From positions 156,732-220,731 of the forward strand of contig JADFZZ010000003.1 of assembly GCA_015232315.1 (NCBI GenBank): 64,000 bases of DNA, read 5' to 3'. Below the pieces are notes generated by a model that had not been told where the DNA came from, did not search any database, and worked only from the letters and a program-made list of their open reading frames with translations. How positions within the stretch are numbered: the first letter of the stretch is position 1; every line of letters begins with the position of its first letter. Below, one piece after another: positions 15,282-38,256 of the stretch. Origin of the DNA: SAR324 cluster bacterium (GTDB lineage Bacteria > SAR324 > NAC60-12). The translations under genes were made by a program, and so were the position numbers.

Positions 15282-15716
15282 TTATACGAAATGAACATGT
15301 CCTTTGGCCTCCAAATCCCTGAGGACCGTTTGGCAAAACCCTTGTTTTCCTCTGATAAGAAAGGTTTTACGCTCTCCTTTTTCATGTGTAAACAAGCCCC
15401 ACAACAGTTCAACTTTTTTATAATCGGGGCTGGTCCACTCAATTTTGAATTCTTCATCGACCTGAGTCATCTTTTTAAGGGAGAAACCTAAGGAAGAGAC
15501 TGGAATCTGCTTACGTTTCCGCTTAAAGGTTTCTTCTGTGATGACGATTGGTTTTGCTTGTTCAAGCTCATTTGTTTTATGCGTTTTTTGTGTAATGACA
15601 ATTGGCACAGTTTCAATTTTTTCCTGCCGCTGAGCGTTTTTCCCCACTGTAGAAACAGCAATCAGTTTTCTATTCATTTTTGAATTTTCCGGCAATTTTT
15701 TGAATTTTTTATGCAT
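15282..15716 (-). CDS. Hypothetical protein, translationally coupled to mamK copy 1
   Basis: ATG 15716 follows GGAGGAG with a 5-nt spacer and overlaps the mamK-1 stop (ATGCATAA). 144 aa with a Lys-rich N-half. The C-half reads FSLKKMTQVDEEFKIEWTSPDYKKVELLWGLF.... No family recognised. Confidence 0.6.
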   Translation of the reverse strand: MHKKFKKLPENSKMNRKLIAVSTVGKNAQRQEKIETVPIVITQKTHKTNELEQAKPIVITEETFKRKRKQIPVSSLGFSLKKMTQVDEEFKIEWTSPDYKKVELLWGLFTHEKGERKTFLIRGKQGFCQTVLRDLEAKGHVHFV

Positions 15717-17241
15717 TAACTCCTCCTTCAATGACTTCGCCTAATTCATTCCAGTTTTCAACTGGAACCTCCATCGCAATTTTCAAAGCTCCATGACATC
15801 CCGCAAAATCAGGATCTTCAACACCTGTCACATAGACCGACCCATAATCCCTCAGATGTTCCTGCAAAACTTTATCCAGCCCTTTTATCCTGGAACAACG
15901 TCCTGAAAGATAGATGTTATTCAAGGTATCATCCTGATCTTCCGGATCAATCCGTTGTAGCAGTGTTTCCATACAATCCAGGATCGGTTCGATCAAGGTT
16001 TCACAGGCTGTTCTGATTTCTCTGGTAAGGTCAAACTGTTGAGGTTTCCCCGCTACCCTTAACGTCACAATCACCGATTTTTCGGGTTTACCGACAAAGG
16101 CATGCTGCTCTTTGATCGATTGTACCTGTTTTTTTGAAATTTGAACTTCGGGAAAGTGTTCTGAAATCAATTTTTTTAATATGTGATCAATATAATCCCC
16201 TCCCTGGGCAATCGTTAATTGCTCCTCGTCTTCAGGAATTTTTCCTGTCAAAACACAGATATCCGTCGTGCCGGCACCAATATCGATCACAATCGCATGA
16301 TTCAATTTCCCTAATCCATAGGCCACCATGAATGGCTCAGAAACAACAAGTGTTGTCCCTGCCAAATCCCGGGCCAGTTTGAGGAGATCTTCCTTGTGGT
16401 TGAATGATGTTCTTGCGGGGACACCAATGACAAGGGAAATGTCGTCGTGTTCCCCGGGTTGTGCCAGCTTCACCGCATGCTCAAGAATTAATCTGGCAGA
16501 ATCCATTTCTGTTGCTTTGATCACACCAGCTTCCAGTGGATAATGGATATCAAGCGATGATTGTTTCGAAAGAGCCTCTTCGCCAATCGCTTTTGTTCCA
16601 TTCAACAACTGAGCTCCAATAAGATCCTTCGGATAACCCACGACTGAAGGAAACATGGCTTTTGCGCCTCTATTGGATTGAACCGCGGTTTTTGATGTAC
16701 CCAGTTCAATGCCGATTCTCAGTTGATTGCTTGAATCTTTATTCATCGCGGAACCCCCAGGTTGTTTTGAATCAGTGGTCATTATTTTTTTAGCGGCCTG
16801 GATGTTTTGTGCCAGTTCCTCAACTTTACGGAGCAAGCTCCCGTGTGAGGGTTTTTGCGGTGCGGCTGGTGATTCAACGGATGATTTCGTTGATTCTTTT
16901 TCATGAGTTGCTTCACGTTTCAGGGGCTCCTTTTTTGTTTTATTGTTGCCTGATTGAGCGTCTGCTTCTGTTGTGAGCGATTTTGGGCCTGTCTTGTCAT
17001 TCCTGGCCGTGGTTCCCAGTATGGCATTTTTCACCAGGGATACGGCAGAGGTTTTATCTTTTTTTTCAGGCTCATCCGCAGATGCGGATTCATCAATTTT
17101 TTCAGAGGCCTTAAACGTTTCCACAACATGTTCTTTGGCGGTTAGGGTTTCCTCAGTCTGATCATCAGCATCTGGTTGACCAGCAATCTTGTCAGGATTG
17201 CCTAATAACATCCCCATGATGTCTGGTGTGTTTTTACGCAT
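15709..17241 (-). CDS. mamK: Actin-like magnetosome filament protein MamK (copy 1) with a ~170-aa acidic/Lys-rich N-terminal extension
   Basis: The C-terminal ~337 aa are colinear with the copy at 31042-32067 and carry actin-fold motifs (LRIGIELGTSKT, VIDIGAGTTDI, IYLSGRCS). ATG 17241 overlaps the parA-like stop (ATGCGTAA). An internal alternative start lies at ATG 16746 (MNKDSSNQLRIG). Confidence 0.85.
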   Translation of the reverse strand: MRKNTPDIMGMLLGNPDKIAGQPDADDQTEETLTAKEHVVETFKASEKIDESASADEPEKKDKTSAVSLVKNAILGTTARNDKTGPKSLTTEADAQSGNNKTKKEPLKREATHEKESTKSSVESPAAPQKPSHGSLLRKVEELAQNIQAAKKIMTTDSKQPGGSAMNKDSSNQLRIGIELGTSKTAVQSNRGAKAMFPSVVGYPKDLIGAQLLNGTKAIGEEALSKQSSLDIHYPLEAGVIKATEMDSARLILEHAVKLAQPGEHDDISLVIGVPARTSFNHKEDLLKLARDLAGTTLVVSEPFMVAYGLGKLNHAIVIDIGAGTTDICVLTGKIPEDEEQLTIAQGGDYIDHILKKLISEHFPEVQISKKQVQSIKEQHAFVGKPEKSVIVTLRVAGKPQQFDLTREIRTACETLIEPILDCMETLLQRIDPEDQDDTLNNIYLSGRCSRIKGLDKVLQEHLRDYGSVYVTGVEDPDFAGCHGALKIAMEVPVENWNELGEVIEGGVNA

Positions 17242-17971
17242 AGACCCTCTCGGTAAGTTGTTCATAATCTATTGCGCCTTGAGATTGAGGAGCAAATTCA
17301 TAGATGGTTTGCGCATATCCCGGTGCTTCAGAGAGTCGAACATTGTAATGAATCGGATTACAAAGTCGATCAGGATAAAATTCTTCCAACTGTTTTAATA
17401 TTTCTACAGATTTTTTAACGCGTCCATCCAGAAAAGTAGGGACAATATAGCGTAATTTTAAGTTTTTATTGTATTTCTGAACAGCTTCCACACTCTTGAT
17501 AAAGCTTGAAAGGCCATGAATGGTCATGACTTCCAGTGAAATCGGGCACAGAATTTCTTCAGCATAAAACAGGACATTCAAGGTCACTGAATCCCACCCC
17601 GGTGAGGTATCGACCAATACAAAATCAAACTTTTTTTCAATGGATGTGAACGCTTCTGAAAGGGTGTATTCCCCCCCGAGGTCTGTTCTGTCAATCAAAC
17701 GTTTGATCCCGGCTATTTCACGTCCTCCCGCGATAATCCACAGATTTTCTCTGACTTGAATGGTTGCCTCATCCACGCCACAGTCCCCAGTGATCACATC
17801 TGACAGATTCACTTTAGGTTTCAAACCAAACATGAAAGACACCTGCCCCTGTGTATCAGTGTCCAACAGCAAGACCCTGGCCCCTTTTTTCGCAAGGCCG
17901 GCAGCGAGATTCACTGCCGTCGTGGTTTTTGCGACCCCCCCCTTACTCAATGATATGGCAATTTTTCTCAT
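17234..17971 (-). CDS. ParA/MinD-family P-loop ATPase
   Basis: Deviant Walker A SKGGVAKTT, then LLLDTDTQG and Walker B FVLVDTSPG. ATG 17971 follows GGAGA. The track ORF begins at TTG 18016. Confidence 0.85.
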   Translation of the reverse strand: MRKIAISLSKGGVAKTTTAVNLAAGLAKKGARVLLLDTDTQGQVSFMFGLKPKVNLSDVITGDCGVDEATIQVRENLWIIAGGREIAGIKRLIDRTDLGGEYTLSEAFTSIEKKFDFVLVDTSPGWDSVTLNVLFYAEEILCPISLEVMTIHGLSSFIKSVEAVQKYNKNLKLRYIVPTFLDGRVKKSVEILKQLEEFYPDRLCNPIHYNVRLSEAPGYAQTIYEFAPQSQGAIDYEQLTERVYA

Positions 17972-18204
17972 TCTTGATCTCCGAATAGGGTACTTCCTCC
18001 TTGATGTATCTACCAACTAGGTTCGTTTAACATGCTGCCACAAAGGATGCAAGCCCTCTGGAAAACAGGAATCAAAGGTGGAAACGGCCATCACATACTC
18101 ATAAGTTGGCTGAAGAATTTTAAACACAACCTTTATAGAACATTTCAGGGCAGTTAAAGACAAAAATCATGTCAATATACCCAATTTTTATTTTATTTTT
18201 TCCT

Positions 18205-18289: not shown

Positions 18290-18547
18290 GTGAGAAAAAT
18301 GAAAATTTTAAATTTTGAAACCAATGATATAAAAAATAAGCTGAAACTAGACAGTATGCCCAACGGGAATCTATTTGTCGGATTGGTGGTCTGCCTCCTT
18401 GGTTTTTGGGGACTCTATGTCTGGTGGTGGTCTGTTGCGGAAGTGTTACGGGGAGTTGTGCCCATTATCCTTATTTTATTCGGTTTGGTTGCAATTGGCG
18501 CAGGTATCTCTAAAAAACAAACCAATAACCAGGTCGATGAAAAATAA
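18290..18547 (+). CDS. mamI: MamI (copy 1)
   Basis: Two-TM hairpin with the hallmark GFWGLYVWWWSVAEVLRGVVPI, matching GLWSLFIWWWSVAEFLRGFTPI in copy 2. The start is uncertain (GTG 18290, ATG 18299 or ATG 18356). Confidence 0.8.
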   Translation: MRKMKILNFETNDIKNKLKLDSMPNGNLFVGLVVCLLGFWGLYVWWWSVAEVLRGVVPIILILFGLVAIGAGISKKQTNNQVDEK

Positions 18548-18558: not shown

Positions 18559-20091
18559 ATGAGTTCTGATACTGGAAATTGTCCCAGAAGATTGCGCAAA
18601 TATTTTTACATGATTCCAATCGCTTCAGTCGCGCTTGTTTTTTTCCTGTACTGGAACGATATGTTCTTTGACAATCGTACTCACAAAGGGACGACCGCAG
18701 AGATGTTCAGTGTGGCCTTCAATGCGTTGACAGGAGGTGATAATCCGACGACTTCTGTACAGGCACGTCAAAATCCAATGCCTTATGCCCAAAATCCTGT
18801 TGCCGTGCCTGTGGCGCAAGCCCCTCAGAATACGATGATATATGGACAACAGCCCTTTGCGAATTCGCCTCAAAATGCCACGACTCTTGCCCAAACTCCC
18901 TTTGTCGTGCCTGTAGTCCAGGCCCCTCAGAATAAGATGAGTTTTGCGCAAACCCCCTATGCTGTTCAGGTTGTTGAATCGCCCTTCACTCGAGTTGCTG
19001 AGTTTGCTAAACAAACTGTAGTGAATATCAGTGCGTTGCGTTTTACCGGTGCGCAACAAAATATGCAACCGGATACTCAGCAACCTACGTTCACCGCACC
19101 ATTCAGTGGTCAGGCCGTTGAAAGTATCGGTTCGGGGGTGATTGTTACGCAAGATGGGTATATTGTTACAAATTTTCATGTTGTTGAAAATGCTGATGAA
19201 ATTTTTGCGACAGTTTTTTTAAATAATGGATCGACCCAGTATCATGCCGATGTCATTCAATTATCTGAACTGCTGGATCTCGCGCTCATCAAAATTGAGC
19301 CGGCGACGCCTTTACAACCGGCACCTTTGAGTGATGAGAATCGCGTCATCAGAGTGGGCGAAGAAGTGTTGGCCATCGGCAGTCCTTTTGGTCTTGATCA
19401 AACAGTGAGCAAAGGAATCATTTCAGGCTTAAAAAAATCAATCCGGATTGATAACATTACCCACAAAAACCTGATCCAGACTGATGCCGCGATTAATCGT
19501 GGAAACTCCGGAGGCCCGCTGGTTGATATGGCCGGTTATGTGATCGGAGTTAACACCGCGATTTTTACTCCAACCGCTTCTTTCGTGGGAATCAGTTTTG
19601 CCATCCCATCGACCGAGGTTATCGAATTTCTGGAAGGTCTCATCACACTCCCCACGGTGCAGCCAAACTTGAACACTCCTGCAACAGCAACTCGAGTCGC
19701 AGGGCAAAAACTACCCTCAGTTATTGGCGAAAATCGCTTTTCAATACCTCCGTATGTTCCTTCGCAGGGGATGAACGTTGCCTTTAATCCCAATGGAAAC
19801 ATTGTGGAGTGGATGGGCGCCGAACTGACCGACATCACAACGGCCATACAAAAGAATTTTAATCTGGATAGCGGTGCGTTTCTGACCAATGTGTATTCCG
19901 GATCGAATGCCGACAAGGCCGGATTGCAACCTGGCGATGTGATATTCAGGGTTGATGGCAGGCCCGTTGGAAATGTCAATGAGCTGATCAATTTTGCTGA
20001 TCAAAATGGCGGTACCGCTCGTGTGTCAGTCATCAGGAATGGTCAAAAACGCAACATTGATATTGATATTGACAACAATAAAGCCCCTTGA
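18559..20091 (+). CDS. mamE: MamE-like HtrA/trypsin-type serine protease with one PDZ domain and no magnetochrome (copy 1)
   Basis: 510 aa: TM, Gln/Pro-rich linker, intact triad contexts TNFHVV / LDLALIKI / GNSGGP, and a C-terminal PDZ (GLQPGDVIFRVDG). No CxxCH motif anywhere in the protein. Confidence 0.85.
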   Translation: MSSDTGNCPRRLRKYFYMIPIASVALVFFLYWNDMFFDNRTHKGTTAEMFSVAFNALTGGDNPTTSVQARQNPMPYAQNPVAVPVAQAPQNTMIYGQQPFANSPQNATTLAQTPFVVPVVQAPQNKMSFAQTPYAVQVVESPFTRVAEFAKQTVVNISALRFTGAQQNMQPDTQQPTFTAPFSGQAVESIGSGVIVTQDGYIVTNFHVVENADEIFATVFLNNGSTQYHADVIQLSELLDLALIKIEPATPLQPAPLSDENRVIRVGEEVLAIGSPFGLDQTVSKGIISGLKKSIRIDNITHKNLIQTDAAINRGNSGGPLVDMAGYVIGVNTAIFTPTASFVGISFAIPSTEVIEFLEGLITLPTVQPNLNTPATATRVAGQKLPSVIGENRFSIPPYVPSQGMNVAFNPNGNIVEWMGAELTDITTAIQKNFNLDSGAFLTNVYSGSNADKAGLQPGDVIFRVDGRPVGNVNELINFADQNGGTARVSVIRNGQKRNIDIDIDNNKAP

Positions 20092-20362: not shown

Positions 20363-21118
20363 ATGAATGATTTAAGTAAATATTTTTTGCCAATGGCGTT
20401 GCTCATTTTTGCGGGTATTCTCCTAGTCAACCTGTTTGATTCACCCGATTATGAGAAGGTCAGGGAACCGGTCGAGTCTGAGCCTGTCACCGCCAAAGAG
20501 GTAGTAGGCATGCCGGTCGCCATGACGGCTCCCATGACCACAAATCCCACGGTGCCTTCCTATATTTCCCCCACGATACAATTGGCGGAAGGGCATTGGC
20601 AGGGCATGGAAACGATTCCCCTGTCCGTTGAAATTAAAAAAAAGCTGAATATTCCCCTGTCAATGGAAGGCGTTCTCATTGATGAAGTGACACTGAGTTC
20701 CTTCGAGTCAGGTGTGGTCGCTGGTGATATCCTGGTTGCGATTGCCCGGAATAAAGTTAGAACCATTGAAGATGTAGAGCGACTTTCAAAACAGGTAAGA
20801 GAATCAAGCAGTGTTTTATTAACGGTGGTCAGAAAGAACAGAACTTTAGAATTTGTACTTAAAAGCAAAGATATTTTGGGGTTTTCACAATCTGAAACCG
20901 CACCGATGATTCTCCCCAGTGATATCATGCCGCATCCCTATCGTGGGGAGTGTGTGAGTTGCCATCCTATCGGAACAATTGGGCATATCACACCTGACCC
21001 TGACGGGATTCCGTTACCTGTACCAACTATCAGGGTAGGGGCCGTCAGTCCGCATAGAGATCGAGGTCCCTGTGAGGCCTGCCATGTGATAATAGCCAAT
21101 AAACAGACATTGAGATAG
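20363..21118 (+). CDS. mamP: MamP-like (or MamE-Cter-like) PDZ protein with two magnetochrome domains
   Basis: 251 aa: N-terminal TM, a PDZ (GVVAGDILVAIARNKV), then PHPYRGECVSCHPIG and PHRDRGPCEACHVI (two CxxCH units in magnetochrome context). RBS GGCAGGAAAG. Confidence 0.75.
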   Translation: MNDLSKYFLPMALLIFAGILLVNLFDSPDYEKVREPVESEPVTAKEVVGMPVAMTAPMTTNPTVPSYISPTIQLAEGHWQGMETIPLSVEIKKKLNIPLSMEGVLIDEVTLSSFESGVVAGDILVAIARNKVRTIEDVERLSKQVRESSSVLLTVVRKNRTLEFVLKSKDILGFSQSETAPMILPSDIMPHPYRGECVSCHPIGTIGHITPDPDGIPLPVPTIRVGAVSPHRDRGPCEACHVIIANKQTLR

Positions 21119-21216: not shown

Positions 21217-21987
21217 ATGGTGGAGGAATACCAATCTCCGTTAGAGGACAAAAAAGAACGTTTCCAGCGCATGAAGGAGATGGCGGAACGGTTGTTCCAT
21301 GAGATAAAGCCCAAGAAAAAACCACTTCAGATCAAGCGCCAGGGACCTGTCATTTGGGTTTCTATTTTAGCGGCCATCGTGTTGCTGGTGACGGTCCTTA
21401 TCGAGATCAATATTTTTATTCTTAATGAAGAGAAGGCGCTGGCGGCAACGGCTAATGTGCAAACATCGTTGCAACGCCGGGCGGATTTGTTTGTGAATAT
21501 TGTCAATGTGGCACTCAACCAGGCTGTGCTGGAATATGAATTAATCCAGTATGTCGCGGATTCACGATCTCAACTTACAAAAGTGAAGGATCTCGACACG
21601 GCAAAGCTAAAGCTGGAGGCTATCGAAAACCTGAAAAAAGGTTCCCCCTCCGAATTTTCTATGACCAAACTGACAGCGTTGGTGGAACAATACCCTCAAA
21701 TAAAATTTTCATCGACTTACGCCTTATTGATTAATCAGTTGATGGAAATGGAAAACCAGATTACCAGAAGGCGAGTGCTTCAAAATGAAGCTATACGGAT
21801 GTATAACACTGCAATCACTCAATTCCCCTGGAATTATCTTGCGCAGATGACTGGCTTTCATCATTATCAGTACTATGAAATGAAAGACAAAACGTCGCAC
21901 ACTGTTCCCGTTTTACAGTCGGATATGTTTAATGAATTATTGCCTGACGTAACACGTTCCACGAACCAACCACCGGTTAACGAATAA
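21217..21987 (+). CDS. mamQ: MamQ (LemA family), copy 1
   Basis: 256 aa: N-terminal TM and LemA core (LQRRADLFVNIVN...YPQIKFSSTY...RRRVLQNEAIRMYNTAITQFPWN). Paralogue of 36070-36813. Confidence 0.85.
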   Translation: MVEEYQSPLEDKKERFQRMKEMAERLFHEIKPKKKPLQIKRQGPVIWVSILAAIVLLVTVLIEINIFILNEEKALAATANVQTSLQRRADLFVNIVNVALNQAVLEYELIQYVADSRSQLTKVKDLDTAKLKLEAIENLKKGSPSEFSMTKLTALVEQYPQIKFSSTYALLINQLMEMENQITRRRVLQNEAIRMYNTAITQFPWNYLAQMTGFHHYQYYEMKDKTSHTVPVLQSDMFNELLPDVTRSTNQPPVNE

Positions 21988-22004: not shown

Positions 22005-22472
22005 ATGGCCAAAGACAAGAAAAAAGGAAGGAATCAAATCATCCTTATACTGGTGTTGATCGCCTTGGTAATTTCCGGTGGAACAGGTGTTATTTTAAGG
22101 CATGAACTGACTCATCGTGAGGCCGGTTTGATTTTTGGACATTTCCCGAAACCCACAGAACCTCGTTTGATGCAACCCATCGTCAATCGGGTACTGGGCA
22201 CAGAACCTAAAAAAGTTCTCATTAGACGCATTCCTAAAATCAGTAGCAATATGCGCATGCCTCATGCCTACTGGGGGGAATGCAGTAGATGTCATTTGTA
22301 CAGTGATAAAACGGTCAATTATAGCGCGACACCAGTAGGAAAGTTACTGGGAGAAGTTTCATCCATTAAAAAAGTAGGTCCACGCATCAGGCCTGATTCA
22401 TTCATGCCCCATCCTGCCGCAGGGCGATGTATCATGTGTCATGATATTGTCATAGACAGTAGTAAATCTTAA
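22005..22472 (+). CDS. mamT: MamT-like double-magnetochrome protein
   Basis: 155 aa: TM, then MPHAYWGECSRCHLY and MPHPAAGRCIMCHDIV (two CxxCH units preceded by P-H). Confidence 0.6.
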   Translation: MAKDKKKGRNQIILILVLIALVISGGTGVILRHELTHREAGLIFGHFPKPTEPRLMQPIVNRVLGTEPKKVLIRRIPKISSNMRMPHAYWGECSRCHLYSDKTVNYSATPVGKLLGEVSSIKKVGPRIRPDSFMPHPAAGRCIMCHDIVIDSSKS

Positions 22473-22543: not shown

Positions 22544-23869
22544 ATGTCAATGATCGCAAGCTGGCTCTGGAATCCTCTGCTCAGCTTTATATATATTGAA
22601 CTGGGTGTGCTGATACTCGTCCTCACTGGATTTGCCGCCTGGCGTAACGTGATTCCAGCTCTAAGGAACAGTTGGACGCAAAGAAACCTCCATAAAAAAC
22701 AAGAGGATGACCATGCTCGTTATATCTCACCTGTTCATGGATTTTTTGCCGCACTGGCCGCAAGCGTTGGCGTTGGTAATTTAGCGGGTGTCGGTACTGC
22801 CATTCATCTGGGAGGCCCGGGGGCCTTGTTCTGGATGTGGGTTTCAGCACTGGTTGGGATGAGTTTTCGTTTGTGTTCTGTCTGGTTGGCAATGCGTTAT
22901 CAAAGCGAGGATCACACAGATCTGGCTTATGCAACGCCCATGTCCTACTTGCAACGATTACAACCGGGTTGGGCCTGGATTCCTGTGGCGTTGGCCACCC
23001 TGTTGATGGTTAAGGGCTTTATCACCTCCAATCTGATTCAATCCAACTCCGTTGCTCATGCGTTGCAGGACGAATTGGGAATTTCCAGTTTTCTGGTTGC
23101 AATCTGCATGTCTGCTCTGGTGGCGTTTGTGATTCTTGGCGGGATGCAGAGAATCGTAGATTTCAGTGTGACAGTGGCGCCCTGGATGGTGCTGGTTTAT
23201 TTCATTGGTGGAATGGTCATTTTATTATCAAACCTGTCAGCCACTGTTCAGGTTATTGGTCTGGTTTTTAAGCATGCTTTCACACCTTATTCCGCCACTG
23301 GTGGACTGATTGGTTATGGCGTTCTGCAAAGCATCCAGTTTGGAACATCCAGAGGCATTTTTTCGCATGCCTCTGGAATCGGAGTTGCCCCGTTTCTTCA
23401 TGCAACGAATAATGCCAGTAAAAAGGATAATGCCTATCTTGCCGCATTTGTTCCCGTTGTAGATACCTTGATTGTCTGTTCGGTGACAGGCCTGGTCATC
23501 CTGACTGTTGGAAACTGGACCCGGTTCAATGGTGCCTATTTAACCTCTTCCTCTTTTCAGTCGTTTTATGGAAACTGGGGCGTTGTGATGCTCATGACTT
23601 GTTTGGTCGTCTTTGCGTTCACCACCATGATCAGTTGGGCCTATTATTCTGAACGATGTTATCAATACCTTGGCGGAACAAGAATCCGGGCATTCCGTTG
23701 GTTCTTTGTGTTCATCACGTTTTGCGGTCCTTTTCTTCCAGTTCGCCTGATTTGGTCAGTTGCGGATATCATGATTGGATTGGTCATTATTATCCATCTC
23801 TTCCCTCTGGTTTATCTGGTTCTACAGCATCGAGATGATTTACTGAGAGAATTGGTTGGCGATCACTGA
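22544..23869 (+). CDS. Alanine/glycine:cation symporter (AGCS) family transporter
   Basis: 441 aa. Signature ALAASVGVGNLAGVGTAIHLGGPGALFWMW. Polytopic membrane protein. Confidence 0.8.
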   Translation: MSMIASWLWNPLLSFIYIELGVLILVLTGFAAWRNVIPALRNSWTQRNLHKKQEDDHARYISPVHGFFAALAASVGVGNLAGVGTAIHLGGPGALFWMWVSALVGMSFRLCSVWLAMRYQSEDHTDLAYATPMSYLQRLQPGWAWIPVALATLLMVKGFITSNLIQSNSVAHALQDELGISSFLVAICMSALVAFVILGGMQRIVDFSVTVAPWMVLVYFIGGMVILLSNLSATVQVIGLVFKHAFTPYSATGGLIGYGVLQSIQFGTSRGIFSHASGIGVAPFLHATNNASKKDNAYLAAFVPVVDTLIVCSVTGLVILTVGNWTRFNGAYLTSSSFQSFYGNWGVVMLMTCLVVFAFTTMISWAYYSERCYQYLGGTRIRAFRWFFVFITFCGPFLPVRLIWSVADIMIGLVIIIHLFPLVYLVLQHRDDLLRELVGDH

Positions 23870-24285: not shown

Positions 24286-24528
24286 ATGATTGATAAATTG
24301 GGTGATCTTGTTGAGTATGGTATAGAAGGGATCGAATATATTGGCACGGGTTGCAAAACAGTTGCCGGATGTGACTCTTATAGTTTTTATACTGGCACAA
24401 AAGCCGCGGCGTTTTTTGGTATCGGGGGAATCGGTTTTTCAGTGCTTGGACCGGCAATCTTGCTTTTGCTGGCTGTAGGTGGAGTGTATTGGTGGTATCT
24501 GAGCAATCAACCCGGTGAGGTTGAATAG
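24286..24528 (+). CDS. Small membrane protein, unknown function
   Basis: Strong RBS AAGGAGA 6 nt upstream. 80 aa with a Gly-rich C-terminal TM, AAFFGIGGIGFSVLGPAILLLLAVGGVYWWYL. Confidence 0.5.
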   Translation: MIDKLGDLVEYGIEGIEYIGTGCKTVAGCDSYSFYTGTKAAAFFGIGGIGFSVLGPAILLLLAVGGVYWWYLSNQPGEVE

Positions 24529-24680
24529 GAACAAACTACAGGTTTCTTTATGGTGGAAACCTTTGTAAAACCCGCGTTTGCGGGAACGAGGCCCAGCTTC
24601 GTAAGTAGGAACCGTGCCCTATGTCACAGGGCATGTTCAAAAATCCTTGATGTGATTAAAACTAAATTTAGAGGAATGAT

Positions 24681-25007
24681 ATGCCTGAATCAAAGGTTTT
24701 GGAAAGTGAGTTTACGATGAAATCGTATGTATTAGCGTTCATGAGTTATCTTGGCATTTTATGTTTGGTGCCAATCCTGTTGAATAAGGATGATGAATAT
24801 GTTTATTTCCATGCCCGGCAAGGATTAGTATTGTGGATATGGAGCGTCATTGCGATTTTCGCACTCTATATTCCTGTCATTGGACAATTCTTCTTCGGCT
24901 TATCTGCTTTTATCATCTTAATATATTCATTTGTCGGGATAACTTCCGTATTGCTGGCCAAAGCCTGGAAACTTCCGTTTGTTGGTGATTGGTCAGAAAA
25001 ATTATAA
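24681..25007 (+). CDS. Small multi-TM protein, DUF4870-like
   Basis: RBS AGAGGAA. 108 aa. ...LNKDDEYVYFHARQGLVLWIW... resembles the F-H-A-x-Q motif of DUF4870-type membrane proteins. Confidence 0.55.
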   Translation: MPESKVLESEFTMKSYVLAFMSYLGILCLVPILLNKDDEYVYFHARQGLVLWIWSVIAIFALYIPVIGQFFFGLSAFIILIYSFVGITSVLLAKAWKLPFVGDWSEKL

Positions 25008-28679: not shown

Positions 28680-28695
28680 ATAGGGGGGATCCAGT

Positions 28696-30816: not shown

Positions 30817-31041
30817 TCATTTTCTAAAATTTGTAATCGTAAAAAATTTCCTGCTGTCAATAATTTGGTGAAGAAATCCTGTGGTTTCCCACGATGTCAT
30901 CCCCGTGAAAACGGGGAACCAGGAGTGCGCCGATGGATTCCGTGTCAAGCACGGAATGACGCCGGGCAAAGGTTTGAACCGGATGCCATCGTCAGAAAAT
31001 TTACAGCGGGAAAAATTATTAGTCCAATCATGAGGGGGTAT

Positions 31042-32067
31042 ATGAAAAAAACACAATTGAGAATAGGTATTGATCTTGGCACATCAAGAACAGCAGTTCG
31101 TTCAGACCGTGGCGCAAAAGCCGTTTTTCCATCGGTGGTCGGGTATCCACGAGACATTATTGGAACCAAGCTGTTGAATGGAACAAAAGCCGTGGGTGAT
31201 GATGCCATTGAAAAAAGGTCATACTTGACGCTGATCAATCCTCTGGATTTGGGCGTGATCAAGGAAACAAGTGAAATCGATATGGAAGCGGCAAAAGATA
31301 TTTTGGAACATGCCATAGCGATTACGCAACCGGAAGAACATGATGAGATTTGTGCTGTGATTGGTGTTCCTGCCAGAGCCTCCTTTTCCAACAAGGAAAC
31401 TCTGCTTCGCTTGGCAAAAGAACTGACTGAAGTGACACTGGTCGTTTCTGAACCATTCATGGTGGCCTATGGGATGGGCAAACTGAACAAGGCTATCATG
31501 ATTGATATTGGTGCCGGAACAACGGATATTTGCGCGTTGAAAGGGGTTGTGCCCAATTCAGAGGATCAGGTTACAATCTCAAAAGGCGGAGATCATATTG
31601 ACCATCTGTTGAAGGCGATGATACAGGAACATTACCCTGATATTCAGATCACCAAACGCGTTGTTCAGAATATTAAAGAAAAATACTCCTTCGTTGGAGA
31701 CATCAAAGAACCGGTGATCGTTCAGTTCAGAGCCAATGGAAAACCCAAGGAATATGATGTGTCTAAAGAAATAAAAGCCGCCTGTGAATCTTTGATAGCG
31801 CCGATTGTCGAGCAGGTTGAATATTTACTGGTCCGGTTTGATCCTGAAGATCAGGAAGAAGCATTACTGAATATTTATCTTGCTGGAAACGGATCTCTGA
31901 TCAGGGGCCTGGACAAAGCAATCGCGGAAAAACTGAAGGAATGTGGTGAGGTCAAGGTGTCCTGTGTGGCTGATCCTGATTTTGCAGGATGCAATGGGGC
32001 CTTGAAGCTCGCGGTGGATCTGCCGATTGAGCACTGGCATCAAATCGGAGACGTCATAGGATCTTAA
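31042..32067 (+). CDS. mamK: Actin-like magnetosome filament protein MamK (copy 2)
   Basis: ATG 31042 follows GAGGGGG. 341 aa with LRIGIDLGTSRT, MIDIGAGTTDI and IYLAGNGS. The track ORF start at 30865 runs through REP-like hairpins and is unlikely to be real. Confidence 0.9.
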   Translation: MKKTQLRIGIDLGTSRTAVRSDRGAKAVFPSVVGYPRDIIGTKLLNGTKAVGDDAIEKRSYLTLINPLDLGVIKETSEIDMEAAKDILEHAIAITQPEEHDEICAVIGVPARASFSNKETLLRLAKELTEVTLVVSEPFMVAYGMGKLNKAIMIDIGAGTTDICALKGVVPNSEDQVTISKGGDHIDHLLKAMIQEHYPDIQITKRVVQNIKEKYSFVGDIKEPVIVQFRANGKPKEYDVSKEIKAACESLIAPIVEQVEYLLVRFDPEDQEEALLNIYLAGNGSLIRGLDKAIAEKLKECGEVKVSCVADPDFAGCNGALKLAVDLPIEHWHQIGDVIGS

Positions 32068-32071
32068 ACTC

Positions 32072-32299
32072 ATGGTAATGGCAAAACGCATTTTTTCATT
32101 CATTCTATGGGCATTGGTCCTGGTTTTTACCCTGGAAAATTTTGATATTGTCCAGGTGCGATTTATTGCAGGGCCTCTTGTGAAAATGCCCCTTGCGTTT
32201 GTTTTGGTGATCGGCTTTGTTGCCGGTTATCTACTTGCCGCAATCAGCACAAGAATAAAAATATACAAGCGTGACAGAGAACTGGAAGATAATGATTAA
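32072..32299 (+). CDS. mamL: MamL-like small two-TM protein (LapA-domain-like)
   Basis: 75 aa. FSFILWALVLVFTLENFDIVQVRFIAGPLVKMPLAFVLVIGFVAGYLL followed by a basic/acidic tail. It sits between mamK and mamM, as mamL does in mamAB operons. Confidence 0.45.
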   Translation: MVMAKRIFSFILWALVLVFTLENFDIVQVRFIAGPLVKMPLAFVLVIGFVAGYLLAAISTRIKIYKRDRELEDND

Positions 32300-32319
32300 A
32301 GCGGAACGATCGGTCAAAA

Positions 32320-33222
32320 ATGCAATTTTCTAAATGTACTGTTTGTTATAAAACAATTGGCTGGACGGGGCTTGTCTCCAATATTTTTCTGTCAGGCTTG
32401 AAGTTGTTTGTCGGGATCGTCGCAGGCTCGCAGGCGCTGATTGCGGACGCGATGTATTCATTTAAAGATCTCATTTCGTCGGTTCTGATCATCATCGGAT
32501 TGAAAATTTCCTTAAAACCGGTTGATCTTGAGCACCCTTACGGGCATGGCAAGGTTGAATTTATCCTTACCTTGGTGGTCAGTGTGGTCTTTATCGGTTT
32601 GACGGGATTAATACTCCTGTTGACCATGGACCATTTTTTTCAGGGCTACCACAAACCACCTCACCTTATCGCGTTAGCTGTCGCTGTATTTTCCGTCGTC
32701 GCGAATCTGTTCCTGTTCAAATATACCAGATGTGTTTCGACTCAAATCAACAGTCCAATGGTCAAAACCTTATCCAAGCATCATGGTGCTGACGCCTTGT
32801 CATCCGTCGCTGTTTCGGCGGGTATCATCGGCGCGCATTACATGGGCCTGATCTGGATGGATTCGCTGGTAGCCGTCTTTGAAACGATCCATCTGTTATA
32901 TCTCGGTGTTGAGATATTCTGGGAATCGTTTAAAGGTTTGATGGATTATTCCGCTCCAGCCGATGTTTTGAGAAAAATTCAACAGACAGTATTGGACTTT
33001 GACGAGGTAAAGACGGTAGAAACCCTCAAAACAAGGCAAGTTGGACAAGGTATATGGATTGATATTGTGATTGGAGTGAATCCTGATTTGAGAGTGGATG
33101 AAGCCTATGATGTCGGGTGTCAGGTTGAAGCTGTGCTGTTTGAAACGATCGAGCATGTGGCCGCTGTGAATGTACGTTTTGGAGCTCATGATTCCAGAAA
33201 ACTCCTTACTCAAGGATTGTAA
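32320..33222 (+). CDS. mamM: MamM (CDF family)
   Basis: 300 aa. The N-terminus MQFSKCTVCYKTIGW, the TM2 site LIADAMYSFKD (Tyr/Asp) and TM5 HHGADALSS match what I recall of MamM. A C-terminal CDF domain is present. Confidence 0.85.
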   Translation: MQFSKCTVCYKTIGWTGLVSNIFLSGLKLFVGIVAGSQALIADAMYSFKDLISSVLIIIGLKISLKPVDLEHPYGHGKVEFILTLVVSVVFIGLTGLILLLTMDHFFQGYHKPPHLIALAVAVFSVVANLFLFKYTRCVSTQINSPMVKTLSKHHGADALSSVAVSAGIIGAHYMGLIWMDSLVAVFETIHLLYLGVEIFWESFKGLMDYSAPADVLRKIQQTVLDFDEVKTVETLKTRQVGQGIWIDIVIGVNPDLRVDEAYDVGCQVEAVLFETIEHVAAVNVRFGAHDSRKLLTQGL

Positions 33223-33224
33223 TC

Positions 33225-35072
33225 ATGAAAAAAGAACAATTTTTTTGTGAAAGCCAGTGGAAAATAGGAGCGGCATTTCTGACAATTATCGCTGTTTCCT
33301 TATTTTTCTGGGGTGTCCATATTCTTACGGAGCACCACGAATACAACATCTCCTATGTTCCAGAGACATCGACTCCGGATTCTGCCAAGGCAGTTTCAGT
33401 CAAAGCTGAAGTTGCTCAAAAACCTGTATTTCCAGCCGATTTTGAAAAGACGATTGTCTCGATTGGAATTGACAGTGGCCAGGATACTCCACTTGCGATA
33501 TTAGGTTCGGGGGTCCTTGTCAGCGATGATGGGCATATTGTGACGGCTGACCATTTGGTTGCCGGTTTATCCGGTTTACATGTTCTGCAAAACAATGTTC
33601 GTTATGAATCACATCTCATCAAAAGAGTTGCCAAGTCCAACATAGCCCTCTTGAAAATTGAATCACTCAAAGCCTTTCCCTTTACCTCCATTGATTGTTC
33701 GATGATTGAAATTGGTACGCCTGTTTACGCGTTTGGAAGGGATCAAGGGATCATAGCAAAAGAAGGCATTGCCCGGAATACAGGTGTGTCTCTGGCCATC
33801 AATGACATGATCTATCCTGACCTGATCACAACTGACGCGATCTATACCTGGGCTCAAAGCGGTGGACCCTTGATGAATGTTTTCGGCAATATGGTAGGAC
33901 TGAACATCGCGATCAGTGGCCCACAGAATTCGATTCAGGGTTTTGCTGTACCGGCACCAACTATTTGCTCAAAATTCCGAGAGATTGTTCACGTTGATTC
34001 GATCACAAATATTAAGGTTTATGCCGGGGGCCTCACCAGTCAGTTCTGGAAAAACACCAGAGAAACAGCGAGTGAATACGCTACTCAAATTCGAAATACG
34101 ATTGAATCCAGTTCATCATCTGACTTGATGGTCTACATCGAAGGGAATAAGGGGGATCTCTGGAAACAAGCCAGATTTGTCGCGGATCGAATGGCTGAAA
34201 TCTACAATAAGGCTGATGGGATCAACTACTTGAACAATGCGGTGAGTGATCCTGAACTCAATTTTTTCGGCTACCATATCAGTGGGGTTATCGGACTCCT
34301 GCTCCTCGGGTTTGTCTCCGGTATCAGTGCCGGTATGGTGACAATGGGCGGTGGGATCATTAAAGTCAGTGGCTTGATGATTATTTTTGGCTATGGTCTG
34401 ATCATCATCCGGCCTGTGGCCTATATCACTAATATATTTGTCTACAGTGCCGCGGCCCTGCGTTACAAAAAAGACAATCTGATTTCCTGGCACAACGTAA
34501 AACCGCTCATTCCATTTGCGCTTTTTGGTTTCGTTTTTGGCTATTTTACAGGGATTTATTTAAACAATTCAACAATCAGAATGATGCTTGGGATATATGC
34601 GTTATTGATTGGAATAAAAGTGGTCACAGAAATTATAAGAAGCGCCATGGGATATCCTGAATTTGAAGGGATTTCTCAAAACCAGACAGGTCATCGCTTC
34701 AAAAATAGCTGGCTGGGATTGCCGATGGGAGTTATGAGTGGTATTTTGGGAATCAGCGGGGGTGTCATTGAGGTTCCATTACAGCGTTATGTTGCCAAAG
34801 TTCCTTTGAAAGAGGCCATTGCCAACAGCTCCGTGTTAGTTTTCTGGACATCTTCACTGGGTGCTGTAATCTCCATGGTGCATGGTGCGGGGATTGGCGC
34901 GTTTGAGATCGATACCCCTCTGATCCTGGCATTGATTGTAATACCCGGTGCGTATTTCGGTGGAATGGTGGGAGCATGGCTTACCAAAATAATGCCGATA
35001 AACCTCCTCAAGAGTATCTACTGTGTCTTGATGTTCTTAATTGCGGCACGAATGATGTTATTCACTTTTTAA
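33225..35072 (+). CDS. mamO: MamO: trypsin-like domain fused to a TauE/SafE-type transporter
   Basis: 615 aa. N-terminal protease-like domain (GSGVLVSDDGHIVTADHLV; SNIALLKIE; AQSGGPLMN). The C-terminal ~250 aa have two TauE-type half-repeats (MGGGIIKVSG..., ISGGVIEVPLQ...). Confidence 0.88.
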   Translation: MKKEQFFCESQWKIGAAFLTIIAVSLFFWGVHILTEHHEYNISYVPETSTPDSAKAVSVKAEVAQKPVFPADFEKTIVSIGIDSGQDTPLAILGSGVLVSDDGHIVTADHLVAGLSGLHVLQNNVRYESHLIKRVAKSNIALLKIESLKAFPFTSIDCSMIEIGTPVYAFGRDQGIIAKEGIARNTGVSLAINDMIYPDLITTDAIYTWAQSGGPLMNVFGNMVGLNIAISGPQNSIQGFAVPAPTICSKFREIVHVDSITNIKVYAGGLTSQFWKNTRETASEYATQIRNTIESSSSSDLMVYIEGNKGDLWKQARFVADRMAEIYNKADGINYLNNAVSDPELNFFGYHISGVIGLLLLGFVSGISAGMVTMGGGIIKVSGLMIIFGYGLIIIRPVAYITNIFVYSAAALRYKKDNLISWHNVKPLIPFALFGFVFGYFTGIYLNNSTIRMMLGIYALLIGIKVVTEIIRSAMGYPEFEGISQNQTGHRFKNSWLGLPMGVMSGILGISGGVIEVPLQRYVAKVPLKEAIANSSVLVFWTSSLGAVISMVHGAGIGAFEIDTPLILALIVIPGAYFGGMVGAWLTKIMPINLLKSIYCVLMFLIAARMMLFTF

Positions 35073-35133
35073 TCCGGGATAATTTCGGGAGCAACCCTGA
35101 CTTGATTATCAAGTAATTACCGGGGCTCTCATA

Positions 35134-35281
35134 CAATGTCATCAACTCTGAATGGTGCTGAGCATTAATTCCCCCTTGGTTTAAGGGGGATAGGGGGATG
35201 TAATTCTGAGTGTTAAATCCCCCATACCCCCTTTGTAAAGGGGGATTATCCAGCGAAGAATTTTTTAAGTTGACGACATTG
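35134..35281 (-). repeat. MITE-like element, family 1 (~150 bp), with flanking direct repeat
   Basis: Termini are caatgtcatcaac / gttgacgacattg. The core carries hairpins cccccttggtttaaggggg and ccccctttgtaaaggggg. GGGCTCTCATA occurs at 35123-35133 and again at 35281-35291. Confidence 0.85.
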
Positions 35282-35400
35282 GGCTCTCATAGCCCGATGT
35301 GTTCGGAGGAACTCCGTATAAAAATAACAAAGACCGAATCAGAACGCATGCCATTGAGTGTCTGGTTCGTACAAAAAACAATCGTTAATGTGGAGAAACC

Positions 35401-36063
35401 ATGGCAAATAAAAAGAAAATAGAGGTTGATGTTGATTTTTCAGATACCCTCAGTTTTTACCTGCATTCCGGATTGAAGACAGCGCAGAAAATTTCTGATG
35501 CGTCGATTGAGTGGTATCGGAACATTTTTTCTCTCGAAAATGAGGAAAAAACTGATTATTTTTATGCCAAAGGAATTGATCACGCAAAGAAAGGAAAATA
35601 CGCAAAGGCGATTCCCTTACTAAGCGCAGTCCATCAGGGCATGCCCCAGGATGCTGAGGTATTACACTATCTTGGACTATCCTATCTGAAAACAGGTGAA
35701 GAAGAGAAGGGACTCGCCTGTTTGGAAAAAGTGACAAAAATTGAAGGAACCCATACAAAAACAATGATCCTGCTTGGTTTGCTCTATAGCAAAAAGAAGG
35801 ACTATGAAAAAGCGGTCGCGGTTCTTGAAAATGCGGTTGCCTATGAAAAAAAGGATCCCGCGCTGTATTATCGCCTGGGGTTTGCGTATGATAATCTGAA
35901 AAAACATGACAAGGCCATTCAATGTTTTGAAAAAGCACTTGATCTGGATCCCGACAATGTCAATGTTTGCCAGGCTCTTGGACTTGCGCATGAGTCTCAG
36001 GGAAATCGGGACGAGGCCGTTGCGTATTTCAAGAAAGCCCTGGAAATGGAAGAGAAAGTGTGA
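35401..36063 (+). CDS. mamA: MamA (TPR protein)
   Basis: 220 aa. Consecutive TPR units (AEVLHYLGLSYLKTGEEEKGLACLEKV..., ALYYRLGFAYDNLKKHDKAIQCFEKAL..., NVCQALGLAHESQGNRDEAVAYFKKAL). It follows mamO, as in mamAB operons. Confidence 0.8.
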   Translation: MANKKKIEVDVDFSDTLSFYLHSGLKTAQKISDASIEWYRNIFSLENEEKTDYFYAKGIDHAKKGKYAKAIPLLSAVHQGMPQDAEVLHYLGLSYLKTGEEEKGLACLEKVTKIEGTHTKTMILLGLLYSKKKDYEKAVAVLENAVAYEKKDPALYYRLGFAYDNLKKHDKAIQCFEKALDLDPDNVNVCQALGLAHESQGNRDEAVAYFKKALEMEEKV

Positions 36064-36069
36064 GGCCCT

Positions 36070-36813
36070 ATGGGGGATGAAACCACAATTGACAGGGAAC
36101 AAGAGGAACGAATACGCCGCACAAGAGAACTGGCGGAGCGTTTGTTTCAGGATGAAATCAACCCCAAAAAAGCATCCCGCAAGAAAAAACAAGGTCCTAT
36201 CGTTTTAATTTATTTCATAGGATTTATTGTTTTTGCGATTTCAGTCTTATACCGTGTCAATATGTTCATTAGTTTGGAAGAAGAAGTTTTTGCCTCGGTG
36301 GGACAGATTGATGTCGCGTTGCAAAGACGAATGAATTTATTTGAGAATATTGTGAACACAACACTCAATCAAGGGATTCTGGAATATAAAATTGTTAAAA
36401 ATGTCGCGGATTCCCGTGCGGGTTTTGCTCAAAATTCTGAACTCAGTGGTGTGGTTGACAACCTGGAAAATCTGGAGGCTCTTAAATCCTCACTCGAGGG
36501 GGCTTCTTTTTCCAAACTGATTGCGCTGATGGAACAATATCCGGAAATAAAATTTTCAGACAACTATTCCCGGTTGATCAACAACCTGGTTGATCTGGAA
36601 GATCTCCTGCTTAGAAAACGAGATGCCCGAATTGAACAAATCCGCATTTACAATACCGCGATTACCACGTTTCCTTCAACGTTTCTCGCAAAAATAACAG
36701 GGTTTAAGCGCTATGAATATTTCGAAATGGAGCTACAGTCCCTCCATAACGTGCCAATGTTGAAACCAACTATGTTTAAGCGACTTTTACCTGAATCCAG
36801 GAAGAGCCCATGA
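36070..36813 (+). CDS. mamQ: MamQ (LemA family), copy 2
   Basis: 247 aa. LemA core (LQRRMNLFENIVN...YPEIKFSDNY...RIEQIRIYNTAITTFPSTF). Colinear with copy 1. Confidence 0.88.
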   Translation: MGDETTIDREQEERIRRTRELAERLFQDEINPKKASRKKKQGPIVLIYFIGFIVFAISVLYRVNMFISLEEEVFASVGQIDVALQRRMNLFENIVNTTLNQGILEYKIVKNVADSRAGFAQNSELSGVVDNLENLEALKSSLEGASFSKLIALMEQYPEIKFSDNYSRLINNLVDLEDLLLRKRDARIEQIRIYNTAITTFPSTFLAKITGFKRYEYFEMELQSLHNVPMLKPTMFKRLLPESRKSP

Positions 36814-37676
36814 GATTTGAAGCCTGTAAACAATGCCGAACTGAACAGGGGATCCACTCCTTTTTAGTCAATCTGTTCATGGCCCTTTTTAAAGGGGTGC
36901 TGGGTGTTTTAACCGGAAGCGCGGCGCTGGTCGCTGACGGGTTGCATTCTTCAGCCGATGTGATCGCCACCAGTGTGACCATGGTCAGCGTTTGGATATC
37001 CGGAAAACCGGCAAGTAAATCCTATGCGTATGGCTATGGAAATATTCAGTTTATTTCCGCGGCAATTGTTGGAATGATCCTGTTGTTAGGTGCGCTTTAC
37101 TTATTTGTAAACGCCACCATCAACATCGTCAGTGGTCTCATCGAAAGCCCCAATATGCTGGCCGTGATTGGCGCCATCGTTTCTATCACCATGAATCAGT
37201 TATTGTTCCATTATCAAAAGTGTGTCGGGCAGGAAAACAACAGTCCGGCAATCATGTCCAATGCCTGGGACAATCGTTCGGATGCGCTTTCCTCAGCGGC
37301 GGTGTTGTTTGGAATCATTGTGGCTGTTTTAGGTTTTCCGATCGCGGATCCCTTGGCGGCTATCGCTGTTTCACTCGTAATCGTCAAGATCGCTGTTGAA
37401 CTTCTTATCGATGCGGTCAATGGATTGATGGATCATTCACCAGATATCACTGAATTGCATGAAGTTTATCGTGTTGCTGAAAGCATTGAAGGGGTTCGTG
37501 GTATTTCATCCCTTAAAATGAGACGTCATGGTGAAATAACACTGGTTGATATTGGAATCAAAGTTCCCCCGGATATGAGAGTTTATGAAGGCGATTTAAT
37601 TGCTCTGGCGGTGAAGGTAAAAGTTTCCAAATCCATGGAGCATGAAACGGACGTTCAAGTTTTTGTAGGAGTTTGA
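36810..37676 (+). CDS. mamB: MamB (CDF family)
   Basis: 288 aa. The N-terminus MRFEACKQCRTEQ, TM2 LVADGLHSSAD (His/Asp) and TM5 WDNRSDALSS (Asp/Asp) match my recollection of MamB. ATGA overlap with the mamQ-2 stop. Confidence 0.88.
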   Translation: MRFEACKQCRTEQGIHSFLVNLFMALFKGVLGVLTGSAALVADGLHSSADVIATSVTMVSVWISGKPASKSYAYGYGNIQFISAAIVGMILLLGALYLFVNATINIVSGLIESPNMLAVIGAIVSITMNQLLFHYQKCVGQENNSPAIMSNAWDNRSDALSSAAVLFGIIVAVLGFPIADPLAAIAVSLVIVKIAVELLIDAVNGLMDHSPDITELHEVYRVAESIEGVRGISSLKMRRHGEITLVDIGIKVPPDMRVYEGDLIALAVKVKVSKSMEHETDVQVFVGV

Positions 37677-37677
37677 A

Positions 37678-38256
37678 ATGAGGCCAAAAGAGTTTTCAGT
37701 TCCCATGGGAATTGTTGTGCTGATTGTTATATCGATTCTCGCGATTGGTTATAATAATAAATTAACCAAAGAAAATTCATTGCCGCCAACCGACCCGAAT
37801 CAGCAGGATCTGACTCAATCGACACTACATCCAGCAGTTCAAGGGGTTCCGCAAACACCTGATATCCCAGTGCAGATGGCTCCACAAACTCAGTCAACGA
37901 TTCCTACTCAAGTTCCCTTGAAAGCAGCTCCAACAAGGTTCAGAGATCCCCTCATAGTGACGTTCAGCGGGACTATTACGGCTGCGCATGAAATTGTTGA
38001 TCAAGGTGGGATGACGCATATGTTTATTCAAAATGACATGGGTCTGGAACAGGAAATATCTGTGGCACCAGCATGGTATCTTGTATTCATTGGTTGCCCT
38101 TTAGCCACTGGAACGTATGTCGATGGGAAAGGTTTTGTTTTCGATAGAATGGATGGTGACGCGTCGATTTACGCGAAAAAAATTCGCCTGGCAACAGGAG
38201 TTTGTCGATTCCGCAATGATGAAGGATTTGCGCTTTGGTCTGATCGGTTGAGATAG
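37678..38256 (+). CDS. Single-pass membrane protein at the mamS position (possible MamS-like)
   Basis: 192 aa: N-terminal TM, Pro/Gln-rich linker, and a C-terminal globular part ...VAPAWYLVFIGCPLATGTYVDGKGFVFDR...CRFRNDEGFALWSD. Tightly coupled to mamB (1-nt spacer). Homology to MamS could not be verified here. Confidence 0.6.
   Translation: MRPKEFSVPMGIVVLIVISILAIGYNNKLTKENSLPPTDPNQQDLTQSTLHPAVQGVPQTPDIPVQMAPQTQSTIPTQVPLKAAPTRFRDPLIVTFSGTITAAHEIVDQGGMTHMFIQNDMGLEQEISVAPAWYLVFIGCPLATGTYVDGKGFVFDRMDGDASIYAKKIRLATGVCRFRNDEGFALWSDRLR

Follow-up and report, generated by a model that had tools for sequence, protein, structure and literature searches.

Two diverged mam gene modules with complementary gene content in a SAR324 magnetosome gene cluster

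Does the presence of two non-identical sets of mam genes side by side mean that a bacterium makes two magnetosome minerals? The question is raised by a 64,000-nucleotide stretch of a SAR324 cluster bacterium genome (assembly GCA_015232315.1, contig JADFZZ010000003.1), here called the window, in which two tandem mam modules occupy 15.3-38.3 kb. A preliminary description of this DNA had suggested a dual system for magnetite and greigite or, alternatively, an accessory function for module 1, the upstream set. The analysis reported here points to a different answer: the two modules probably make up one composite magnetite-type cluster, which would have arisen by an ancient operon duplication within SAR324 followed by complementary gene loss. 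We infer the history of duplication and then loss, the joint function of the modules and magnetite as their mineral.

Gene content and order of the two modules

The listing of open reading frames (ORFs), their translations and domain scans agreed with the two-module arrangement described earlier. Four genes, mamI, mamE, mamK and mamQ, are duplicated and diverged, with one copy per module. The genes mamL, mamM, mamO, mamA and mamB were confirmed to be restricted to module 2, as is mamS, and each is single-copy; domain scans likewise confirmed that the MamP-like and MamT-like proteins, a ParA-like gene and a transporter (a symporter) are found in module 1 only. BLAST of each mam protein against all ORFs of the window revealed no further mam copies. 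The claim of two non-identical sets was borne out by the ORFs, the domains and the identities between the paralogues.

Across both modules all nine core genes (mamA, B, E, I, K, M, O, P and Q) are present. The NCBIfam cut-offs were exceeded by MamK, MamM and MamB, and the remaining core proteins matched the right model below the equivalog cut-offs. The full gene set takes both modules, since mamP and mamT are confined to module 1 and mamB, mamM, mamO, mamA, mamL and mamS to module 2. The description of module 1 as an accessory set holds in so far as it is a partial set beside the main operon; it does not hold in the sense of a spare or redundant set, since mamP and mamT are found only there. 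The seven magnetochrome CXXCH motifs of the window are distributed over MamP (two), MamT (two) and the MamE of module 2 (three).

Module 1 consists of a minus-strand pair, the ParA-like gene and mamK-1, together with an ORF of 149 amino acids (aa), divergent from a plus-strand run mamI-mamE-mamP-mamQ-mamT-symporter. All its ORFs are intact. Module 2 extends on the plus strand from mamI-2 to mamS (25690-38256). The guanine-plus-cytosine (GC) content is alike in both modules (0.44-0.45 against 0.43-0.48), and domain scans gave no match to transposase, integrase or phage families among the ORFs of the region. A scan for promoters and terminators yielded the same counts as shuffled sequence, so that operon boundaries were not defined by it.

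In loci of Magnetococcales, Gammaproteobacteria and Alphaproteobacteria the gene order is (mmsF)-I-E-K-(mamF)-L-M-O-P-A-Q-B-S-T, and partial Nitrospinota loci are consistent with it. The run I-E-P-Q-T of module 1 is a collinear subset of this canonical order, of which only P and T are missing from module 2. This is what would be expected if an ancestral mamAB-type operon, (mmsF)-I-E-K-L-M-O-P-A-Q-B-S-T, had been duplicated in tandem within SAR324 and the two copies had then shed complementary genes. The downstream copy, module 2, would have retained the genes for membrane formation, iron transport and scaffolding (I, E, K, L, M, O, A, Q, B and S); the upstream copy would have retained I, E, P, Q and T, with a second mamK and the ParA-like ATPase gene alongside. 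Module 1 would supply the stand-alone magnetochrome redox proteins MamP and MamT, a magnetochrome-free MamE, and extra MamI, MamQ and MamK, and the two modules would most likely build a single magnetosome type.

Similar arrangements were found in other genomes of the same lineage; the closest relatives of the window MamK proteins all come from SAR324 cluster bacteria. A SAR324 metagenome-assembled genome (MAG), GCA_015231535.1 (locus L005), carries P-Q1-T-symporter-mms6-mmsF-I2-E2-repeat protein-K2 in the same order, with 97-100% aa identity. In 'Deltaproteobacteria bacterium TL4' (GCA_051382335.1), hereafter TL4, whose module 2 proteins are about 50-70% identical to those of the window, a single contig of 30.7 kb holds K1 ... 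I1-E1-P-Q1-T ... mmsF-I2-E2-J-K2-L-M-O-A-Q2-B-S. In a third SAR324 genome, GCA_015231825.1 (JADGAV), K'-P lies upstream of mmsF-I-E-ParA-..-K-L-M-O-A-Q-B. The occurrence of the layout in other SAR324 genomes excludes an assembly accident; at least some magnetotactic SAR324 bacteria share the two-module layout as a conserved feature.

Age, placement and mineral type of the paralogues

The aa identity between the module 1 and module 2 copies is 52% for MamI, 50% over the first ~400 aa for MamE, 60% for MamK and 45% for MamQ. The E-values of these paralogue matches range from 1e-23 to 1e-148, far beyond chance. Synonymous sites between the paralogues are saturated (proportion of synonymous differences, pS, about 0.73), which indicates that the duplication is old. 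A stretch of about 50 residues that hardly differ between MamE-1 and MamE-2 was considered as a candidate for recent gene conversion; this was rejected, as the DNA of the stretch is only 77% identical and synonymous sites between the paralogues are saturated. The similarity is explained by constraint on the catalytic core.

The ratio of nonsynonymous to synonymous substitution rates (dN/dS), calculated between the window and GCA_015231535.1, was 0.10 for MamQ-1, a value resting on small counts (7.5 non-synonymous against 19.5 synonymous changes), and 0.09 for MamT; both values are similar to that of MamE-2. These results show purifying selection on two genes of module 1. The dN/dS of about 0.1 for the two genes, together with the intact state of all ORFs, identifies module 1 as functional.

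The persistence of four intact paralogue pairs, with purifying selection on MamQ-1 (and on the single-copy MamT), could also mean that the paralogues do something of their own. A history in which the whole operon was duplicated and split by reciprocal loss, and the retained paralogues acquired a distinct task, for example a second magnetosome sub-population or a ParA-assisted positioning of a kind not described from magnetosomes, is unlikely, although credible. In a more remote variant, module 1 would serve a second mineral with an evolutionary origin separate from the known Fe3S4-type clade. Rather improbable, too, is a reading with one mineral and two programmes, in which I, E, Q and K of module 1, together with ParA, would build or position a second magnetosome sub-population, for example one with a different crystal habit, in a different chain or as a condition-specific set, beyond completing module 2. 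The pairing of the second MamK with a ParA-type ATPase would fit such programmes, as would the differences between MamE-1 and MamE-2 in magnetochromes (0 and 3) and PDZ domains (1 and 3), and a published proposal holds that magnetosome morphology and arrangement owe part of their diversity to gene duplication. However, module 1 has no iron transporter (MamB or MamM) and no MamO of its own, and a second programme would still depend on module 2.

The phylogenetic placement of the paralogues bears directly on the mineral question. Trees were built by neighbour-joining, with 100-200 bootstraps, from trimmed alignments of Mam homologues from 83 loci and database matches. For MamK, all SAR324 copies including both window paralogues formed one clade with 100% support (99% with 121 sequences). 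The SAR324 copies of MamE also formed one clade (100%), as did those of MamQ (100%; 98.5% when Desulfobacterota-type MamQ and generic LemA outgroups were included). MamP was monophyletic in SAR324 at 94% and MamT at 100%, and their neighbours in the trees were those of the remaining Mam proteins; the SAR324 clades were placed among Nitrospinota, Magnetococcales, Gammaproteobacteria and Alphaproteobacteria. MamQ-1 was orthologous to Q1 of TL4 with 95% bootstrap in one tree, and with only 46% in a wider tree.

The monophyly of MamP and MamT in SAR324 indicates that module 1 is native and shares the lineage history of module 2. This bears on the suggestion that module 1 is a redundant islet acquired horizontally, like the magnetotaxis islet (MIS) of Magnetospirillum magneticum AMB-1, which is similar in content: it has mamK-like (54.5%), mamE-like (51.9%) and mamQ-like (37.5%) genes and a terminal ParA ORF (Rioux et al. 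2010, PMC2818848). We consider such an origin very unlikely. The module 1 proteins, MamP and MamT included, group solely with SAR324 orthologues; the GC content does not change across the modules, and the region has no match to transposase or phage families. Moreover, module 1 adjoins the main operon, the layout is kept in TL4 despite its distance from the window, and the module is not redundant for P and T.

Scores against the NCBIfam models were similar for copies 1 and 2 (MamI 70.8 and 71.8, MamQ 172 and 164, MamK 427 and 473 bits). A C-terminal MF..LLP tail is shared by both window MamQs and those of Magnetococcales, Nitrospinota and Alphaproteobacteria, and is lacking in the aligned Desulfobacterota and Omnitrophota sequences. 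By these scores and the MamQ tail, both copies look equally 'magnetite-type'. When a profile of Q1 and Q2 was searched against 1.84 billion representative proteins, MamQ of SAR324, Magnetococcales, Alphaproteobacteria, Gammaproteobacteria and Nitrospinota ranked first, and that of Ca. Desulfarcum epimagneticum, the only named MamQ recovered from Desulfobacterota, reached only 1.2e-20, the level of generic LemA proteins.

In the trees, Desulfobacterota-type MamQ lay across a split from SAR324 MamQ with 88-96% support. This group includes Ca. Desulfarcum epimagneticum and metagenome loci with the gene order I-A-I-Q-B-P-E. In this comparison, we take Ca. Desulfarcum epimagneticum to be of magnetite type. 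The order I-A-I-Q-B-P-E is the magnetite-type order in the multicellular magnetotactic prokaryote (MMP) XL-1 (PMC9145555).

According to the dual-mineral proposal, magnetite would be the product of module 2, and greigite or a different second mineral that of module 1, an arrangement for which Desulfamplus magnetovallimortis BW-1 and multicellular magnetotactic prokaryotes are the models. The separate gene blocks formed by the modules agree with it, and the divergence of the paralogues, at 45-60% identity, falls in a range similar to that of the magnetite and greigite paralogues of XL-1 (46-84%). The proposal was nevertheless not borne out and appears most improbable. Both copies of MamK, MamE and MamQ fall within a single SAR324-only clade, the outcome that the preliminary description had itself named as refuting its dual reading, although the duplication is ancient rather than recent; in a published survey Fe3S4-type MamA, MamB, MamM and MamQ form a clade of their own. 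Module 1 lacks mamA, mamB, mamM and mamO (and also mamL), while both sets of XL-1 come with separate copies of mamA, B, E, I, K, M or MB-like, O and Q, and with separate mad genes (PMC9145555). An mms6-like gene and mmsF are present in the window; a published survey places mms genes in Pseudomonadota, Nitrospinota and SAR324 only, and mad genes in other phyla. SAR324 is not among the Fe3S4-type and dual-type genomes listed by Lin 2020. Finally, no ORF of the window matched a non-mam ORF of six Desulfobacterota-type cluster loci; BLAST of the ORFs of these loci, which cover few mad genes, returned only the mam counterparts. Two adjacent, diverged mam sets are no sufficient sign of magnetite plus greigite; what decides is gene content together with the placement of the paralogues.

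Several points weigh against the composite magnetite-type cluster favored here, or limit it. The JADGAV contig ends just upstream of K', leaving only K'-P visible ahead of the main operon, and the presence of a complete second module throughout SAR324 is not established. The gene mamK-1 is not collinear with a simple operon copy, being inverted in the window and lying upstream of I1 in TL4. Neighbour-joining, the only tree method used, did not recover the orthology of K1/K2 and E1/E2 between the window and TL4 within the SAR324 clade; the MamI alignment, with 74 usable columns, is too short to resolve. The timing and the number of duplications are uncertain because branching inside the SAR324 clade is poorly supported. 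The trees contained no named greigite-type reference (BW-1, multicellular magnetotactic prokaryotes, Latescibacteria) that would exclude a dual system directly, and the placement relative to the Fe3S4 clade draws on the literature and on Desulfobacterota-type stand-ins. The assignment of magnetite to the source organism is likewise a prediction from its genes.

Searches for such references returned other sequences. A scan of genome contigs with the MamK alignment returned loci of Desulfobulbaceae, Magnetococcales and Alphaproteobacteria, and not those of BW-1 or multicellular magnetotactic prokaryotes. Homologue searches yielded only generic LemA proteins when started from a Thermodesulfobacteriota MamQ-like protein (P0158), and unnamed or Desulfobulbaceae matches when started from a Desulfobacterota MamK (L052), with no greigite reference in either. 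Among named cluster proteins only Nitrospinota, Ca. Desulfarcum epimagneticum, Omnitrophota and Desulfobulbaceae were found, and a metagenome scan produced Desulfobacterota-type I-A-I-Q-B-P-E loci and the fragment L088, and no named greigite reference.

Two observations concern loci outside SAR324. L088 (metagenome contig SDBV01039415.1) is a deep-branching fragment, mamM-B-A-Q-O, whose MamQ is sister to Desulfobacterota-type MamQ with 92% bootstrap. In many genomes of Desulfobulbaceae and Desulfurivibrio, including cultured Desulfurivibrio strains, tandem genes for MamK-family actins occur with no other mam gene within 10 kb (L006-L029); the two members of these pairs fall in two separate clades.

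Genes of the modules, spacer and flanks

The 149-aa ORF downstream of mamK-1 (15282-15731, minus strand) has no Pfam or NCBIfam match. Its C-terminal 81 aa are 60% identical to an ORF lying at the end of the TL4 cluster. MamK-1 itself, an actin-like protein (15709-17265, minus strand), scored 427 bits with the NCBIfam MamK model, against a cut-off of 400, and has its core at about 15709-16746. Its N-terminal 173 aa are an open frame that depends on the choice of start codon and show no similarity to the extension of the TL4 orthologue; the gene is called as 345 aa in the protein collection (P0011). The different domain architectures claimed earlier for both MamE and MamK were found for MamE, with zero and three magnetochromes and one and three PDZ domains; for MamK the difference comes down to this extension.

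At residues about 185-190 of MamK-1 (window 16700-16720) the sequence reads GIELGTS, where the other MamKs of a 15-sequence alignment have GIDLGTS. MamK-1 here has Glu in place of Asp, at a residue that hardly varies, in what we take to be the phosphate-1 nucleotide-binding motif. Identification of MamK-1 as Mad28 was rejected: the protein satisfies the MamK model and shares 60% identity with MamK-2, whereas the identity between Mad28 and MamK is only 15-17%.

Upstream of mamK-1, and overlapping it, lies the gene for a ParA/MinD-type P-loop ATPase (17234-18016, minus strand; Pfam AAA_31/CbiA). ParA-like genes recur near mamK: one lies between mamE and mamK in JADGAV (L002, 7843-8592), and another has the same place in a Nitrospinota MAG (L044). 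That such a gene recurs beside mamK in both SAR324 and Nitrospinota suggests that its product may be an additional positioning factor, perhaps one that is so far undescribed.

On the plus strand, module 1 encodes MamI-1 (18290-18547; NCBIfam MamI, 70.8 bits) and MamE-1 (18559-20091), an HtrA-type protease with a trypsin domain, the His/Asp/Ser motifs and one PDZ domain. No CXXCH motif was found in MamE-1, which makes it magnetochrome-free. MamP, the sole copy in the window (20363-21118), matched the NCBIfam MamP model with 253 bits and Pfam MCR, and consists of a PDZ domain and two magnetochromes. It is followed by MamQ-1 of the LemA family (21217-21987; NCBIfam MamQ, 172 bits) and by MamT, also the sole copy (22005-22472; NCBIfam MamT, 133 bits; two magnetochromes). 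The last gene of the run codes for a transporter of the Na/Ala-symporter family, AGCS (22544-23869; Pfam Na_Ala_symp, 6.7e-94). AGCS genes lie in or beside the magnetosome clusters of three SAR324 genomes (73-99% identity), including TL4 (L001, 18798-20120), and homologues adjoin two Magnetococcales loci (L078 and L079; 52-54%); no magnetosome role has been assigned to them.

The spacer between the modules holds two small genes on the plus strand, at 24286-25007. The first encodes a small Gly-rich membrane protein (24286-24528) that is called mms6-like from its composition and position only. The second, MmsF (24681-25007), has a weak DUF4870 match and shares 43-76% identity with ORFs that take the place of mmsF elsewhere; its orthologue in GCA_015231535.1 is annotated as PF09685 MamF_MmsF. 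Clusters of SAR324 have been reported to contain mms6 and/or mmsF (Lin 2020).

All genes of module 2 are on the plus strand. MamI-2 (25690-25944; NCBIfam, 71.8 bits) has a likely true start at 25750, and its orthologue in GCA_015231535.1 has 66 aa. MamE-2 (25941-28679) combines a trypsin-type protease with its three magnetochromes and three PDZ domains. The DNA of magnetochrome units 2 and 3 (27246-27343 and 27366-27463) is 96% identical over 98 nt, which points to a recent internal tandem duplication. The following gene (28696-30816), at the position of mamJ in Magnetospirillum, encodes a coiled-coil repeat protein of 706 aa with no family match. It contains at least nine tandem repeats of 84 nt (28 aa) rich in Glu, Lys and Ala, and its length varies from 706 aa in the window to 655 aa in the near-identical strain and 422 aa in TL4; conservation is confined to NPW motifs at the N-terminus and an SGKKL..SYE motif at the C-terminus.

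MamK-2 (30865-32067; NCBIfam MamK, 473 bits) has a likely true start at 31042. Short GC-rich palindromic (REP-like) elements lie in intergenic spacers at 25585-25655, 30885-30970 and 35165-35250; because such elements fill the upstream spacers, the mechanically called ORFs of mamK-2 and mamI-2 are inflated. The remaining products, recognised in Pfam scans, are a MamL-like protein (32072-32299); MamM (32320-33222), with 388 bits, above the NCBIfam cut-off of 350; MamO (33225-35072; NCBIfam, 553 bits); MamA (35401-36063; Pfam); MamQ-2 (36070-36813; NCBIfam MamQ, 164 bits); MamB (36810-37676), with 376 bits, also above a cut-off of 350; and MamS (37678-38256; NCBIfam, 129 bits).

Upstream of module 1, Pfam scans identified a CDF transporter (10349-11338), a DtxR-type repressor with a FeoA domain (11367-12083) and FeoB (12053-14053), all on the minus strand, and a short CDF protein on the plus strand (14323-14946). 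The block 10349-14946 flanks the cluster with iron-handling genes; as a rule, feoB is located within magnetosome gene clusters (Lin 2020). Immediately downstream of the cluster, the region 38680-54426 encodes a protein in which the chemoreceptor zinc-binding domain CZB occurs twice, two response regulators, an Hpt/HATPase hybrid kinase of 817 aa and a HEAT-repeat/receiver/HATPase protein of 1282 aa. This block may represent signalling linked to magnetotaxis.

Relation to known magnetosome gene clusters

A near-identical cluster is already public, and the cluster of the window is a further case of a known type; it opens no long-standing question. It is of moderate specialist interest as a natural experiment, separating genes that tolerate duplication (I, E, K and Q) from those that stay single-copy. 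The window shares its lineage with the known clusters PCRbin3, nKLK_bin6 and nPCR_bin7 of SAR324 ('Ca. Lambdaproteobacteria'; Lin et al. 2018, 2020), and compared with other SAR324 clusters its version is longer and contiguous. The accessible portions of the published text on SAR324 clusters contain no discussion of a paralogous module or of a complementary distribution of mamP and mamT.

Two diverged mam sets with similar paralogue identities are also found in BW-1, Ca. Magnetomorum HK-1 and MMP XL-1 (PMC9145555). In these organisms the sets split into magnetite-type and greigite-type clades and have their own mad genes; in the window, by contrast, the paralogues are sisters within one lineage, and the BLAST comparison, limited to six loci, found no mad-like genes.

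Closer parallels come from magnetite producers, in which diverged second copies are already known from AMB-1, Magnetovibrio blakemorei MV-1 and the gammaproteobacterium SS-5. In the portion of Lin 2018 that is accessible, MV-1 and SS-5 have two mamK genes in a magnetite-type cluster, as does the window; only mamK is duplicated there, whereas the window also has second copies of mamI, mamE and mamQ.

AMB-1, known to make only magnetite, resembles the window in having a partial, diverged second set of mamK, mamE and mamQ with a ParA gene. Its mamK-like and mamE-like genes are transcribed, and a partial mamAB duplication occurs as well (PMC2818848). The MIS of AMB-1 is far from the magnetosome island, has a lower GC content, is rich in transposases, is fully redundant and has been judged to be laterally acquired. 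Unlike it, module 1 of the window lies next to the main operon at the same GC content and with no mobile-element match, appears to have been born within the lineage, is conserved across genomes, and carries the sole mamP and mamT of the cluster.

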